Source of the DNA: Octopus vulgaris
Taxonomy: Eukaryota
NCBI GenBank assembly: GCA_951406725.2
Contig: OX597832.1
Span: 12,462,001-12,526,000 of the forward strand
Length of the DNA: 64,000 nucleotides
Reading direction: 5' to 3'
Below, piece by piece: positions 14,721-51,373 of this stretch. Numbering within the stretch: the stretch's first letter is position 1; every line of letters starts with the position of its first letter. The notes beneath the pieces are model-generated. The model saw nothing but the letters and a program-made list of their open reading frames with translations. It made no database searches and had not been told where the DNA came from. A program made the translations under genes and the position numbers.

Positions 14721-14770
14721 TAAATAGTAAGAAATACCGGCAGCCTATATTCACGGTACACTAGCACATT

Positions 14771-15168
14771 TTAATCCTTTCTACTATAGGCACAAGGCCT
14801 GAAACTTGGGGGAAAGGATTAAGTCGATTATATCGACCCAGTACTTAACTGGTGCTTACTTTATCGGCCTCGAAATGAAGAAAGGCAAAAATCGAACTCG
14901 GCGAAGTTTTAACTGAGAACGTTGCGAGAGACGAAATACTTATTTCTTTACTGCCCACAAGGGGCTAAACACAGAGAGGACAAACAAGGACAGACAAAGA
15001 TATTAAGTCGATTATATCGACTCCTGTGCATAACTGGTACTTAATTTATCGACCCCGATGGGATGAAAGGCAAAGTCGACCTCGGCAGAATTTGAACTCA
15101 GAACTTAGCGGCAGGCGAAATACTGTTAAGCATTTCACTCGGCGTGCTAAGTCTTCTGGCAGCTTGCC
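14771..15168 (-). mobile_element. SINE-B dimer: young-tail unit (14940-15168) joined to headless old-tail unit (14771-14939)
   Basis: Two core copies. The minus-strand junction reads aaagaaataa|gtatttcgtc. The distal unit ends in the old tail caggccttgtgcctatagtagaaaggatta. Confidence 0.88.
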
Positions 15169-15975: not shown

Positions 15976-16137
15976 ATGAGATACGCGTTTTCTGAAATTG
16001 TTTAGAAAGTATATATATATTTATATATTTATAGATAATTTGAAATATTTTAAGAAACTGAAATACTATCATGTTCTAAAATGTCTGCAGAAGGATTACG
16101 CACATATGGAATAGTAGTAATTACTTAATCAAAAGTC

Positions 16138-16610
16138 TATCTTTTGATCGTCATTTCCGCTTGCAGTAGAGTACCTAACACCAGCGACATGTTTTGTCGA
16201 TATTTCTCTCCTCCTATCGCAGCGAATCCTATCTACTCTTGATTGGCATTGAGCTGATATAAATATATGGTCTCTTTATCTACATTTAAATCAATCTCAA
16301 TTTCACCAGCAATATATCAAACCGAAGAGAGCAGTCTTTGGAAAATCACAGATTGCACACTTGATGTGATCATCTTTTTATCGTGATTTCCGCTTGCAGC
16401 CGGGTACCTAACATGAGGGACATATTTTACATAATTTATTGATATATCCCTACCGCTATTTCACTGAGTTCTACCCTTGACTGACGTTGTGCTCATATAA
16501 ATATTTAGTCTCTTTATGTACATTTAGTGCGGTTGCAATTTCAGGCGTCATGTATGAAGTACACGGGGAAAATTCCTGGAGAAATCACAGACTGCACGCG
16601 TGATATGGCC
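16138..16610. repeat. Diverged tandem duplication, unit about 235 bp
   Basis: Colinear shared anchors atttccgcttgcag, gtacctaaca, atataaatat, gtctctttat and aaatcacaga. Confidence 0.85.
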
Positions 16611-16838
16611 AAGTTTTCGTAAATATGATGCAAATAAAGGGTGGATGAATGCTACTTATAGACTCAATATTTTCATATAGTATATGCAATCAATAACATA
16701 GAATAACGTGCCAAGCTTTTGTGGTTTTCTCATGAGAAATTGGAAAAAGTTAATCTGAATTTTAATTCAGTAAAATATGGTGACAGTGTCACTAGCTCAT
16801 TGTTTACGACACACTAGCACTTTCAGAACAACGTTTCT

Positions 16839-17072
16839 TATTTCTTTACTGCCCACAAGGGGCTACACACGGAGGGGACAAACAAGGACAGACAAACGGA
16901 TTAAGTCGATTATATCGACCTCAGTGCGTAACTGGTACTTAATTTATCGACCCCGAAAGGATGAAAGGCAAAGTCGACCTCAGCGGAATTTGAACTCAGA
17001 ACGTAACGACGGACGAAATGCCGCTAAGCATTTCACCCGGCGCGCTTCCGATTCTGCCAGGTCCCCCTGCCT
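16839..17072 (-). mobile_element. SINE family B, young subfamily
   Basis: Reverse complement matches 23152-23372, including the tail. Confidence 0.9.
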
Positions 17073-18382
17073 TTACCAGTCCTCCCACCTTTGCCAACTC
17101 ACCCCACCTTTGCCAGCTCCCCCGCCTTTCTGCCCAACACTAACTTCGAAGGAAGTAAATACTGAAATACTTCGCTAAAGTTGAGATCAATACGAAATGG
17201 CCATATATATATTTATATGCAACGAAAGTGTTTTCTTCTTTGCTGTTTATATGCTATCAATTCACCACTTCTAGTTAAGAAATCTCATGATATCTAGTGG
17301 TAAATAGTTATAATAGTAAAGATTGTCTTACCAATGTAAGCAGACTGTAGCTTCTAGGATAGAGAAAATTTTTGTCGCTAGATCGTGTCGAGTAAATAGA
17401 TATATCAGTAAAATTAGAGCATATCGCAGTCAGTAGCCCAGTACATAAATATTCTATTAACGAATGAGTCTCGCAAATATCTACCGAAATAAACGCCGCG
17501 TCTGCCACCCTGGTGTGAACAAGCTTAGAAGAAAGAAAGAAAAAGCATTGTGCGAGACGTGCATAAACATAAAAATATTATTATCACAAAAAACTTACAA
17601 GCACAAATGAAAAGAGAGATTATTTTTCTTTCGTACAGAATACTGTAAAATCAGTTAGTTTTCTTAGTGAGACACCCCAAGTTTATAGTATTGCCGTTGG
17701 TTAGTGGTAATATATTATATTCAGATAACTTCGTTTACTTGAGATACAGAGGTTGGAAATTAAATCTATTGATCATACACTATCTAATTAACTGTGACAG
17801 AATTCAAAATACACATATTTTGTTCGAGTATAAAACACGTTTTTGTCTAACTTGTCAGCGATTCAAATTAGCGTTTATACAAATATTGCTCAGTAAACTA
17901 GATGGAGATTCAGATTGTAAATAATGTGCTCAAACACAGCGGTGGTTATTAGAACATATGGTCATACAGCTTTTCTTTATTGTTGTTGTTGTTGTTGTTA
18001 TTATCATTATTTTTTTTTTTGTTCTTTCCTCTAAGCAGAATGACACTCGCAAAATATATGGTAATTGAATCACTGAATTGAAGCACAAAAGGAAAATTAA
18101 GGGAATGATAAATTCATTTTGACCGAATACACAGACACACACACACACACACACACACACATATTTGTTGCTGAACAAAAACTTGCGCGGGGAAATGGAA
18201 ATAGAGTGAACTCGTCAGACGAGAAGCGAAGCTAATTGTCCCCACATCGTTTAAGCAGGAGTCCAGTTGTCGCTTCAACGTGACAGTCAGACAGAATTAA
18301 CAGTTATTCTGAAAATTCGTCATCACTGTCAGAGTTTCAGTGCAATTGTATTGTTGCTAAACGCAGATGCTCATCGATAACC

Positions 18383-18625
18383 GTGGTCATCCTCCATATT
18401 CTTCATAACCATAAAGGTGTGGGAGATTTTCTATTTTCATTCTCACAGACACCACCTGAACATTTCCGTCGTCATCTTTATAACCATAATATTTATGTTG
18501 ACCATTACAACGATAGTGACGGCAACGATAATTATAACGTTGATTATGATGACAATGATTATGATCATCATCGACAGTATCATAATCATCATCATTATCA
18601 TGATTATCGTGATGATTCATCAACG
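18383..18625. repeat. Degenerate (ATC/GAT)n low-complexity tract
   Basis: Seen directly. Confidence 0.8.
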
Positions 18626-18989
18626 GTGGTATTTTCACTTTCATCTTTGACAACAAAATTTACAGCTTCATCAACAAGGTATAATCAGTGACTTCATTAA
18701 AAGCTTCATCGCAATATTTATGTATTTATTCTAGCGCCCTGTGTCATACCAACATACGCAAACACACATATTACATGCGTATGCATATATGCTTGAGTGT
18801 ATGTGTGTAAATACATGCATACAAAGACACAGGCACTGGCTTTACTAATCTTTCATTCTCTCTTTCTCTGTATATACAGTCACTCACTTCTACTGATACG
18901 TGCAATGATCGATCGGTGTTATATTATCAGACACAAGCAGTGTGATTGAACCAGGAACCATGCGGCTTCGATGCCAAAACAACTCCATT

Positions 18990-19004
18990 ATATATCTATA
19001 TCGA

Positions 19005-23151: not shown

Positions 23152-23372
23152 AAGGCGGTGAGCTGGCAGAAACGTTAGCACGCCGGGCGAAATGCATAGC
23201 CGTATTTCGTCTGCCGTTACGTTCTGGGTTCAAATTCTCCCGGGGTCGACTTTGCTTTTCATCCTTTCGGGGTCGATAAATTAAGTACCAGTCACGCACT
23301 GGGGTCGATGTAATCGAATTAATCCGTTTGTCTGTCCTTGTTTGTTCCCTCAGTGGGGGGAGTAAAGAAATA
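23152..23372 (+). mobile_element. SINE family B, young subfamily, full length
   Basis: Head ggcggtgagctggcagaaacg, B box gggttcaaattc, core gtcgactttgcttttcatcctttcggggtcgataaattaagtaccag, tail ending ...agtaaagaaata. Several copies in the window. Confidence 0.9.
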
Positions 23373-23432: not shown

Positions 23433-23969
23433 ATGTTTCTTTATTAGCCACACAGGCCTGCACACAGATAGAACAAATTACAAGGTAGAGCTTTTCTTTT
23501 GAAGGTTTAAAAAAAAAAAAAGAAGGGGGAATTTCGATCAAAAGGGATCGTAAAAGGAGAGAAAGAGGACAAAAAAGGGGGTTAAAAAAAAGGGGAGAGA
23601 AAAAAAAAAAAAAAAAAAAATTGATCAATAGGGATCGTTATCACAGAAATGTCAATATGAAGTGTAAAGGGGAGGACAGGTGAGGTTTACCCGTGGAAAG
23701 AAAAGCCTACGGAAAAGACCACGGTAACCTCGGTCAATGAAGTCACATTTTATATTTCTTTTTTTTTTTTTTTTTTTTGCAAATAAGCAACTCTCTGTTT
23801 TCGATTTCTGGGTTCATAGGACTATGCTCAAGGTGGCTTCGTCATTCATACGTGCCATTCTTGCTACATTCACCCATCTTTTTTTAAAACATTCGCTAGA
23901 CAAAACTTGCCTCTCTACTCTCACTTTCCTTTTCAAGTGGTACTTGAAGAAGTTGATGAGAGATTGACC

Positions 23970-23972
<3 letters not shown>
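23433..23972 (-). mobile_element. 5'-truncated non-LTR retrotransposon, Tx1/L1-like, inside a (GATA)n tract
   Basis: On the minus strand: ORF2-like C-terminus, about 380 bp of pyrimidine-rich 3' UTR, and the end ...gtggctaataaagaaaca. GATA repeats flank both sides. The clade is inferred from the motif. Confidence 0.7.
23814..23972 (-). pseudogene. C-terminal remnant of LINE ORF2 (SGQSLINFFKYHLKRKVRVERQVLSSECFKKRWVNVARMARMNDEATLSIVL*)
   Basis: The F..xL..+V..E.......F...W pattern is typical of Tx1-clade ORF2 ends. The upstream part of listed ORF 23814..24038 is microsatellite. Confidence 0.65.
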
Positions 23973-24000
<28 letters not shown>

Positions 24001-36383: not shown

Positions 36384-36616
36384 TATTTCTTTACTACCCA
36401 CAAGGGGCTAAACACAGAGCGGACAAACAAGGACAGACAAACGAATTAAGTCGATTACATCGACCCCAGTGCGTAACTGGTACTTAATTTATCGACCCCG
36501 AAAGGATGAAAGGCAAAGTCGACCTCAGCGGAATTTGAACCCAGAACGTAACGGCAAACGAAATACGGCTACGCATTTCGTCCGGCTTGCTAACATTTCT
36601 GCCGGCTCGCCGCCTT
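36384..36616 (-). mobile_element. SINE family B, young subfamily
   Basis: Full head, core and tail on the minus strand. Confidence 0.9.
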
Positions 36617-48811: not shown

Positions 48812-49515
48812 TTTTTTTCATTTGGAACGTAGAATACATATATATTGAAAGAATGGGGATATACGTGCGTGTGTGTGTGTGCGTTTGCGTGTGCGCCTCT
48901 GTTTATGAATGTATGCATGTATGTATGTATGTATGCATGTATGTATGTATGTATGTATGACATTCAACATTTAATAGATATTTAATTTGAAATCCTTCTG
49001 GCACAAATTTACACAGTATTCGCCACTGTATTTATAAGTTAAGAGTACACGTGTCTTTGGACTGTTCTTCGACTTGCATGATATTTCAGTTGAAGGATCC
49101 ATTAGGAAAATAAATAAATAAAATATATAAACAAAATAAATAAATAAACTTTCATGGCTCTGGATAATACAATAGTAAAGCTATTTGTTTCTGTATAGAA
49201 ATATAGAACTATTTGTGTTGAAACAAATATAAACAAGCCTATTCTTGTAAACTTTAACTCTACCACTTATTTCTATTTTATTTCGTTATTTAAACATTTA
49301 CTGCCATGCACAAATATAGATTATGTTACATTATATATAGCAAAACCCACAATTTGTTAAGCTGTCGATAAACACACTTCGGACTTTAATATTGAAACAG
49401 TGAGTTCTATAAATATTTAGAAATAGAGAGTGTAGGTTATATATAATAACGTATGATAAAATATAGTGTATTTAACCTAGCATTCACGATTTCCCCGGCA
49501 TAATTTTTTTTTTTT

Positions 49516-50085
49516 CATTCTCGGCACCAGGTCCGAAATTTTCGGAAGGTGGCCAGTTGATTAGATCGACTGCAGTACGCAACTGGTACTTAATTTATCG
49601 ACCCCGAAAGGATGAATGGCAAAGTCGACCTAGACGAAATTTGAACTCGAGACCTAAAGACAAACGAAATACCTATTTATTTACTACCCACAAGGGGCTA
49701 AACACAGAGAGGACAACCAAGGACAGACAAAGGGATTAAGTCGATTATATCGATCCCAGTGCGTAACTGGTACTTAATTTATCGACCCCGAAAGGATGAA
49801 AGGCAAAGTCGACCTCGGCGGAATTTGAACTCAGAACGTAGCGGCAGACGAAATACCTATTTCTTTACTGCCCACAAGGGACTACTCATATAGGGGACAA
49901 ACAAGGACAGACAAACGGATTAAGTCGATTATATCGACCCCAGTGCATAACTGGTACTTATTTAATCGACCCCGAAAGGATGAAAGGCAAAGTCGACCTC
50001 GGCGGAATTTGAACTCAGAACGTAGCGGCAGACGAAATGCCACTAGGCATTTCGCCCGGCGTGCTAATGTTTCTGCCAGCTCGCC
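49516..50085 (-). mobile_element. SINE-B trimer: full unit 49857-50085, headless unit 49673-49856, headless old-tail unit 49516-49672
   Basis: Three core copies. Both junctions read (minus) ...aaatag|gtatttcgt. Confidence 0.9.
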
Positions 50086-51373
50086 GGTTTCTCCCGCAGA
50101 GAAATACATTCAACTCCAGTTGAGATAGATGATAATCAGCCTCGTATTATGTATCTCACGCAACTGCAAAATTTTGAATTTGAAAGGTCAGGTTCACTCA
50201 CAATTAAATGTTCTTTAAATTAAATCTTTTTCTCGGAAAATAGAAAAGTAAGGAAGCTGGAACGGTCGTATTTGGGTTCATCTTGATCATAGGTCTTCAT
50301 TTACCAGAACCGTCTTGGGCCTGTACCACAACAATTATATCTAACTCAAATGGAAGAGAGTTAACACGATTTGTTGCTAACGCTGACATATGGGCGGAAA
50401 GGTGGATGAACAAAATGGTGGGTGTTCAAATAAATAAACGAAATGAAGAGATAGAACGATCATTAATCTTTAGTAATTATCTTTATCGACTGAACATTGA
50501 GTAATCTGAAATGAATTGACATAAAGAAGCCGGATGATGAACAAGGAGGAGGAGAAAGATGATGATAATACTGATGAAGAAGAATGAGAAGAAGTAGTGA
50601 AGAAAGAAGAAGAAGACGAACAACCGCAATAACCACAACAATATCAACAAAGAAATATGTGAGGAAAACAAATGCGTTAATAAAGAAAATCAATTAGAAG
50701 GAAATAAAGTACTATTTTAATAACATTCCAGAATGTGTCCCAACAAATAGTTATCCGTAAACGGCGAGGAGTTATTGAAAGAGATTAATTAAAGTAAAAT
50801 CAAAGAAGAGAGGTGAAAGAAAGAAAGGTAGACAGAAAGGCAGGATAGACATTGAAAAAAAAAACATACAAATATACAACGACCATCTAAAAATAAAAAC
50901 ATTAAGGATGTTAACTAAATTATATAGGATAATATCCAAGACATATTTAGTTTAAAGATTAGTTTACGGAGAAATACGATTGGTTATTTAACCGTGATTA
51001 ATGTAAATTATATCTGGAGGAAAAAAAACAAAAACAAACAAACAAACAAACTAACAAAAACACAAAGGAAATAAAATTCCACTCGCATCATTTTACCAGA
51101 AGATTTTGCAATGAATAAAAGTAATGAGATTTTGTTCACAAAAGAACAATGTTGCCGGATCTCGATCAATTATTTTAGTGTTTTTTTTTTCCTTATTTAG
51201 TTGCTAGGTTTACATACATCTTCCTTTTTCATCGTATTTGCTTTATATTTAATATAGCCGTAAGCCTAAATTGTAAAGCACCCACCACTGACGCCACCTC
51301 CGCTTTCAGTTCTAACAAAACCTTCCCGTCAAATTTCTGACCATCAGCTTCTATACCCAATTGTTTTTGTTGG

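Follow-up and report, generated by a model that had tools for sequence, protein, structure and literature searches.

Recurrent joining of a SINE and a putative Tx1-like LINE to one internal base of pre-existing SINE copies in an octopus genome

Known targets of site-specific LINEs comprise rDNA, genes for small RNAs, microsatellites and DNA transposons. The named octopus SINEs are OK, OR1 and OR2, and SINE superfamilies include CORE, Meta and Deu. In crocodilians, SINEU-3 and Tx1-Mar LINEs have a common preferred site in another repeat, and independent insertions were argued from truncated copies in the available part of the description (PMC4494074). An Alu-into-Alu hotspot at position 133, with approximately 16,000-19,000 events, is explained, in the text available, by suboptimal L1 sites beside the A-linker (PMC2836564). 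TSD1-(SINE)n-TSD1 arrays, for which the accessible sections suggest unequal recombination, were reported in the clam Scapharca broughtonii (PMC11481361), and SINE-derived satellites were reported in squamates, where one snake unit begins at position 42, inside the head, according to the portion available (PMC10702118). The available portions of mollusc or SINE surveys (PMC4824008, PMC4758252, PMC8967140), as well as of PMC3414825, do not mention such targeting. In the literature searched, no LINE restricted to a site within a SINE and accompanied by seamless self-insertion was described; notes on octopus Tx1 targets may exist in Repbase, Dfam, supplements or subscription journals, which lay outside its scope.

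The octopus system analysed here is a real, well-supported variation on transposon-targeting systems of the Tx1 type, and its parts have precedents. Like the SINEU/Tx1-Mar system, as far as the latter is described in the available text, it combines a Tx1-like LINE family and a SINE with a common site inside a repeat, but it is not a member of that system, in which the SINE head is snRNA-derived, since no match to Rfam was found in the window (the whole stretch of 64,000 nucleotides analysed, G000:C19:12462001-12526000 of a 2.8 Gb genome) and the target is the SINE itself. The crocodilian target is a Mariner DNA transposon used in two broad regions, whereas in the octopus a single base is used and it lies in copies of the SINE's own family; passenger and target are thus the same element, and seamless joins become possible. 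The Alu hotspot is similar in that a SINE enters its own family in sense orientation at one prominent base, but the available account includes neither head loss nor a LINE confined to the site, and in both features the octopus differs. The clam arrays, in the sections accessible, likewise have one complete head, head-truncated repeat units and one flanking duplication; their internal units are, however, also tail-truncated, whereas the octopus internal units carry a complete LINE-type tail and are accompanied by insertion intermediates. Squamate satellites also consist of tandem units derived from part of a SINE, but their account, to the extent available, contains no insertion mechanism, and the octopus arrays are mostly of 2-3 units and dispersed.

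The locus at 49516..50085 had been read in the earlier note as a SINE-B trimer of the structure head-(body+young tail)2-body+old tail, which was confirmed by alignment of the minus strand and by TRF (period 184, 2.6 copies). With nt 1 of the SINE placed at position 50085, the array on the minus strand comprises the head (50085-50042), unit 1 (50041-49858), unit 2 (49857-49674) and the old-type body and tail (49673-49516), followed by an A-run (49504..49515, minus strand). The single tRNA-like head (nt 1-44; 50042..50085) aligns with the heads of the family and contains a putative Pol III A-box region; motifs resembling the A and B boxes are visible against the consensus, and Rfam and ARAGORN gave no match for the head. 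Both young units are 184 bp long and consist of a body from nt 45 and a Tx1-type tail: in unit 1 (49858..50041, minus strand; tail at ~49924-49858) the body differs from the young consensus at 2/110 positions, and in unit 2 (49674..49857, minus strand; tail at ~49740-49674) at 1/110. The remainder of the older target copy (49516..49673, minus strand), with a body from nt 45 and an old tail, is of the O1 type at all diagnostic sites and is off the O1 consensus at 9/109 positions.

Both young tails meet the same motif approximately 45 nt into the SINE, as proposed earlier, but the junction coordinates given then (49672/49673 and 49856/49857) shift by one base: the joins were placed at 49858/49857 and 49674/49673, because target duplications at other loci begin directly after the tail end AAAGAAATA, which assigns the initial G of GGTATTTCG to the target. 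The target motif GGTATTTCG is present on the minus strand at the last junction (49665..49673) and again at 49849-49857, and its variant GGCATTTCG at 50033-50041, also on the minus strand. Units 1 and 2 have no private changes in common and differ at 5/9 subfamily-variable sites, so that assembly collapse or duplication is, judging from these differences, an unlikely source of the trimer. Candidate 5' and 3' copies of a decayed target-site duplication, dating from the first insertion of the old SINE, were found on the minus strand at 50086..50098, adjoining the head, and at 49488..49500; 10/13 bases match, and three or fewer mismatches in 13 occur in ~0.7% of random pairs, a frequency from a narrower search than that made for the trimer. 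The decayed 13-bp duplication flanking the whole trimer is accordingly suggestive only. The best interpretation of the trimer is a single old O1 copy to which two young units were added separately. At this locus one contig from related organisms holds 50043-50450, with the head, and one holds 49200-49588, with the old tail; among the contigs listed from these organisms none spans the trimer or a second array (L085), and paralogous SINE contigs dominate. The depth of the junction bin relative to the core bin was 4% in one related organism and 35-36% in the other three runs, a ratio not equivalent to copy number.

The window contains a second multimer on the minus strand (14760..15168), composed of a head, a young unit and an old unit of subfamily O2 with the same junction, as well as young monomers at non-SINE sites, namely at 36384..36611 (minus strand), 16839-17066 (minus strand) and ~23157-23370 (plus strand). 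The target 9-mer with at most one mismatch was matched 32 times in the window against 22 expected, which by itself is weak evidence. In the monomer 36384-36611, at SINE nt 30-57, an imperfect inverted repeat folds into a long stem whose 3' arm contains the target; the predicted folding of the monomer RNA is no better than that of shuffled sequences (z -0.56). At each junction the tail end GAAATA and the sequence TATTTC together restore a short inverted repeat.

The SINE, of ~230 bp, is dispersed and non-coding, with at least 91,523 exact tail matches genome-wide; its tail is 79-96% identical over 26-46 nt to those of several zf-RVT LINE families, and its copies are flanked by target-site duplications of 15-18 bp. 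The peak of one motif expected downstream of young tails was found: the tail followed by RGTATTTCG has at least 25,114 exact genome matches, and reversed controls of both the tail and the tail-plus-site patterns have none. In a sample of 539,923 bases chosen around tail matches, blind to the downstream sequence, 152 tail ends were found, including 69 at nt 45, 7 at nt 12 and 3 at nt 45 with small deletions; one lay beside a separate SINE, and 72 lay outside SINEs. With 69/152 tail ends at nt 45, the SINE is not an element with nearly all copies at the target, and for it nt 45 is a strong preference, or hotspot, rather than a strict specificity. Among 124 non-SINE tail ends of a larger sample, GGTA was enriched 83-fold and TATA 6-fold over random DNA; these letters lie inside the 15-18-bp duplications and therefore pre-existed in the target. 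The samples consist mostly of chosen loci from one contig and are not random DNA. Of 4,411 exact old-type sites, the first 100 were scored by hand for occupancy, with each unit of an array counted singly: 62 stand behind a young tail, 37 behind a head and one behind a LINE tail. The nt-45 site is heavily used.

The same base is joined by a LINE. One of 30 loci (L360) contains a LINE whose tail ends with AAAGAAATT at SINE nt 45, and when its own 3' end alone served as query, 39 of the 40 best-ranked among 389 candidates proved to be further copies. The 3' joins of all 39 are at nt 45: in 37 an aligned SINE body follows, one is interrupted after 18 bases and one has a readable few bases. The idea raised earlier that the LINE itself inserts at this site is thus upheld, as regards the 3' join, on copies selected by their own 3' end. 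The SINE remnants behind these copies are old-type in 18 cases and young-type in 15, with 6 unclassified by motif, and have 0.17 derived changes in common per pair; in this respect, with independent copies at one base, the L360 family behaves as a sequence-specific non-LTR retrotransposon. Its copies are ~85-92% identical to each other, an age that, judged from this divergence, would be compatible with that of the young SINE, and the young SINE tail, as in unit 1 of the trimer, is 80-88% identical to the tail of the site-specific LINE across 34-43 nt. Fragments of the family are 40-85% identical along the intact ORF2 of L203, which contains the domains Exo_endo_phos, RVT_1 and zf-RVT; its nearest database proteins have the same domains. 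An Argonauta protein is among the two best database matches of a LINE reading frame, and one named protein, 'transposon TX1 uncharacterized 149 kDa protein', was matched with 36% identity at rank 96 of 120. From these domains and protein matches, the L360 family appears to be Tx1-like, of the AP endonuclease-RT-zinc type.

In 10 copies of the family, several of which are broken or extend beyond the fetched stretch, the 5' ends showed no SINE head. A composite LINE+SINE master was considered and rejected, since the SINE remnants are diverse and no duplication links the LINE 5' ends to the SINE ends in 10/10 copies. Searches for the LINE at the site with other sequence patterns returned mostly SINE variants, and 30 plus 18 zf-RVT stretches contained other LINE families, not at nt 45. 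Tail likeness does not identify the partner, because the LINE family whose last 27-28 nt are closest to the SINE tail was found at the site in 0/15 exact matches.

Insertion into existing copies is most directly seen where the second head was retained. In 101 exact cases genome-wide, ~15 bases of the site are followed by a complete second head. Among 30 such loci fetched (two pairs overlapping), 22 have a full young copy ending at nt 45, preceded by a head in 14 cases and by an earlier young tail in 8, with a duplicated run of 9-25 nt (median 15); 6 loci have no young tail within 300 bases and 2 copies end elsewhere. At four loci (L271, L272, L296, L297) variants private to the target, including one deletion, are present in both copies of the duplication, as is characteristic of a staggered cut with primed insertion into a copy already in place. 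The copies behind earlier young tails show that existing junctions can be hit again.

The targets are diverse and older than the units joined to them. Among 87 terminal old units, 69 belong to O1, 7 to O2 and 6 to O3, with 5 ambiguous; their pairwise distance of 11.8% is about twice their divergence. The diversity foreseen for the downstream old-tail copies was thus found: they fall into three subfamilies and are no more alike than lone copies, with 0.34 derived changes in common per pair against 0.37. The divergence of terminal O1 units is 5.38%, of lone O1 copies 5.35% and of the upstream units of the same array 3.7%, means calculated without trimer-selected loci; in 50 arrays the terminal unit was the more diverged in 33 and the less diverged in 16 (Wilcoxon p=0.001). 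Flanking duplications, detectable in 25/51 O1-ended arrays and 49/87 young-ended copies, have 13.8% mismatch in the former and 9-10% in the latter (p=0.017); between O1 arrays and lone O1 copies no difference was detected (5 lone cases, p=0.14), and approximately half of the elements tested had no detectable duplication. Bodies with fewer than 60 aligned nt or near locus ends were left out, as were low-complexity flanks in the duplication test. Unsealed duplications, older and diverse targets and the LINE at the same base together bear out the central proposal of the earlier note, namely that young copies insert at a fixed site inside pre-existing SINE-B. Its further suggestion, that the old family is the target, holds in that old O1, O2 and O3 units are hit, but is too narrow, as young copies and existing junctions are hit as well.

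These data also bear on the reading that one or a few composite masters with the junction built in were retrotransposed whole, so that no targeting is needed. Such masters were expected to leave both common diagnostic mutations and one duplication around the whole array; the latter is found, and the former is absent. Whole arrays within single duplications, together with head-less fragments of tail and body in unique DNA, speak for this reading, but it accommodates neither the three old subfamilies downstream with star-like distances, nor the greater age of terminal than of upstream units, nor the copying of private target variants in unsealed insertions, nor a LINE at the same base. As a general account it is very unlikely, and at most it likely explains some copies, mainly young-ended multimers. 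The recurrent join marks repeated insertion and not one composite master. The single duplication around whole arrays also fits pre-joined RNAs, and in 7/30 loci of one sample head-less tail scraps joined to a body were found in unique DNA, as truncated composite RNAs would give; some pre-joined RNAs were probably retrotransposed.

Probably, the Tx1-like LINE and the young SINE are both joined at nt 45 of pre-existing copies by nick-priming, with head pairing in the case of the SINE. The LINE machinery would nick the lower strand at nt 45, at GGTATTTCG, and the nicked site would prime reverse transcription from the end of the RNA tail. The SINE cDNA would then pair with the identical head of the target upstream, so that only body and tail are added; each such event would leave GGTATTTCG whole downstream, and the site could be hit again. 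In this scheme the LINE family would mobilise the SINE, its endonuclease would set the site and the 5' join would be sealed by homology. The SINE is far looser than the LINE (72/152 SINE tail ends outside SINEs against 39/39 LINE copies at the site), and its copies elsewhere are likely the work of less stringent partners, or of the same enzyme acting less stringently.

More than 99% of the joins have no second head, a rough ratio from different patterns (101 against 25,114), and the second head is likely missing because the cDNA pairs with the head of the target. Old-type letters just past the site were found in the first unit of only 7/76 old-ended arrays, so the 5' join usually falls within the head. 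Uniform 5' junctions of R2 were postulated, in the part of the paper available, to arise from annealing of the cDNA upstream of the site (PMC3774820). Both R2 and SART1Bm/R1Bm (PMC7265360), as described in the sections accessible, are comparable in that target-homologous sequence in RNA or cDNA leads to precise joins; those elements are, however, autonomous and reside in rDNA or telomeres, whereas the homology in the octopus is the SINE's own sequence. Alternatively, all insertions may at first have been unsealed, with two heads, the extra head being lost later by recombination between 64-bp repeats. Unsealed forms exist, and DNA-level change of this repeat is seen in the eight 64-bp copies at G000:C10:17996023-17996502. 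Later loss is nevertheless disfavoured, because unsealed copies are as old as seamless ones (divergence 3.0% and 3.0%, p=0.94); the longer 184-bp repeats, moreover, persist by the ten thousand, although they might be expected to collapse faster. This alternative is therefore improbable, and head pairing during insertion is preferred.

What sets the site may be answered differently. Run-on RNA reading through the junction could pair with the nicked primer strand, in which case a loose endonuclease suffices and the target is inherited in cis; this is possible, though we hold it only tentatively, and it may act together with reading of the site by the endonuclease, from which it differs in what sets the site. 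The terminator of Pol III is a run of four T. No such run is present in the young consensus, the O1 consensus or the trimer, so that Pol III would read through, and the run-on would be complementary to the primer strand. In favour of RNA aiming are also the 83-fold enrichment of GGTA at non-SINE sites, inside the duplication, and target classes that look discrete (GGTA, TATA and AGAA), AGAA matching the other site in the SINE, that at nt 12. At GG sites one tail variant is more frequent (28/35 against 49/89, p=0.013), but this is one of five tests, of which the other four were not significant. Annealing of 3' RNA to the target was proposed for SART1Bm and R1Bm in the available sections of PMC7265360. 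The strict placement of the LINE (39/39), on the other hand, is explicable by an endonuclease without RNA pairing. Overwriting of the first 20 nt of old targets by run-on RNA was considered and rejected, as the positions concerned already show a mixture in lone copies of O2 and O3; the remaining signal is a preference for T at the third target base (11/13 against 31/68, p=0.014). Run-ons truncated at the 3' end into non-SINE DNA were seen by eye in ~5/326 ends.

Arrays could also arise by tandem duplication at the DNA level, either through unequal exchange or through gene conversion with a dimer as donor, a model proposed for the clam SINE arrays. In arrays of six or more units, 20/33 neighbouring pairs have at least two private changes in common, and the longest run seen, at G000:C2:9368448-9371608, is a homogeneous series of 18 units of 184 bp. 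In arrays of 2-3 units the proportion is 21/144, against 0.4% of random pairs. Duplication does not reach, however, to the first young-to-old junction formed independently in three subfamilies or to the placement of the LINE, and the units of the trimer have no common private change. As the origin of the join it is excluded by the private target variants in unsealed copies, and as the general explanation of arrays it is highly improbable; it stands for long arrays, in which, from six units upwards, growth is mostly by local DNA duplication.

A bolder and rather unlikely extension of the targeted-insertion reading would be a closed loop, in which the LINE has specialised on its own passenger SINE, run-on RNA pairs at both ends and the choice of landing site is inherited and seeds tandem repeats genome-wide. 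The usual relation of host and passenger is reversed here, in that a LINE is confined to one base of a SINE and the SINE piles up at that base. Through the joins, at least 25,114 in number, the passage of a dispersed repeat into tandem arrays can be followed on a very large scale, and it becomes testable how target choice and 5' joining by LINEs are divided between the endonuclease and pairing of RNA or cDNA. With seamless joins, annotation of repeats will count too few insertions and give wrong ages for old copies in the octopus genome.

Several further structures were noted at other loci. The eight tandem 64-bp copies on C10, each made of the head and the duplicated target, form a minisatellite that arose by amplification of an unsealed insertion. 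The rarer nt-12 join leads to 217-bp units (L265 and C1 loci), one six-unit array of which lies in a single 15-bp duplication. Four young copies (L037, L041, L042, L049) end at an apparently single site, starting with GG, of another repeat, and at L090 (G000:C1:1943000 stretch) a young copy has inserted in antisense orientation into another copy's body; the duplication there measures 18 bp and begins with GGTAC. A different LINE family, with near-identical copies and an intact ORF2 of 1140 aa, is arranged head-to-tail every ~5.4 kb in L191-L199 (e.g. G000:C2:73040000-73069999), and behind 6/6 copies stands one common stretch of ~250 bases, which is a fixed target or else an extension of the 3' end. 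Two more zf-RVT LINE families (L207, L210) end directly in (ATT)n and (ATCT)n runs, resembling what is expected of microsatellite-targeting Tx1 families; in the window, a LINE 3' fragment at 23844-23984 (minus strand) is 97% identical in protein to the L210 family. A repeat with units of ~200 bp at L209 and L210 includes SINE body fragments starting near nt 42.
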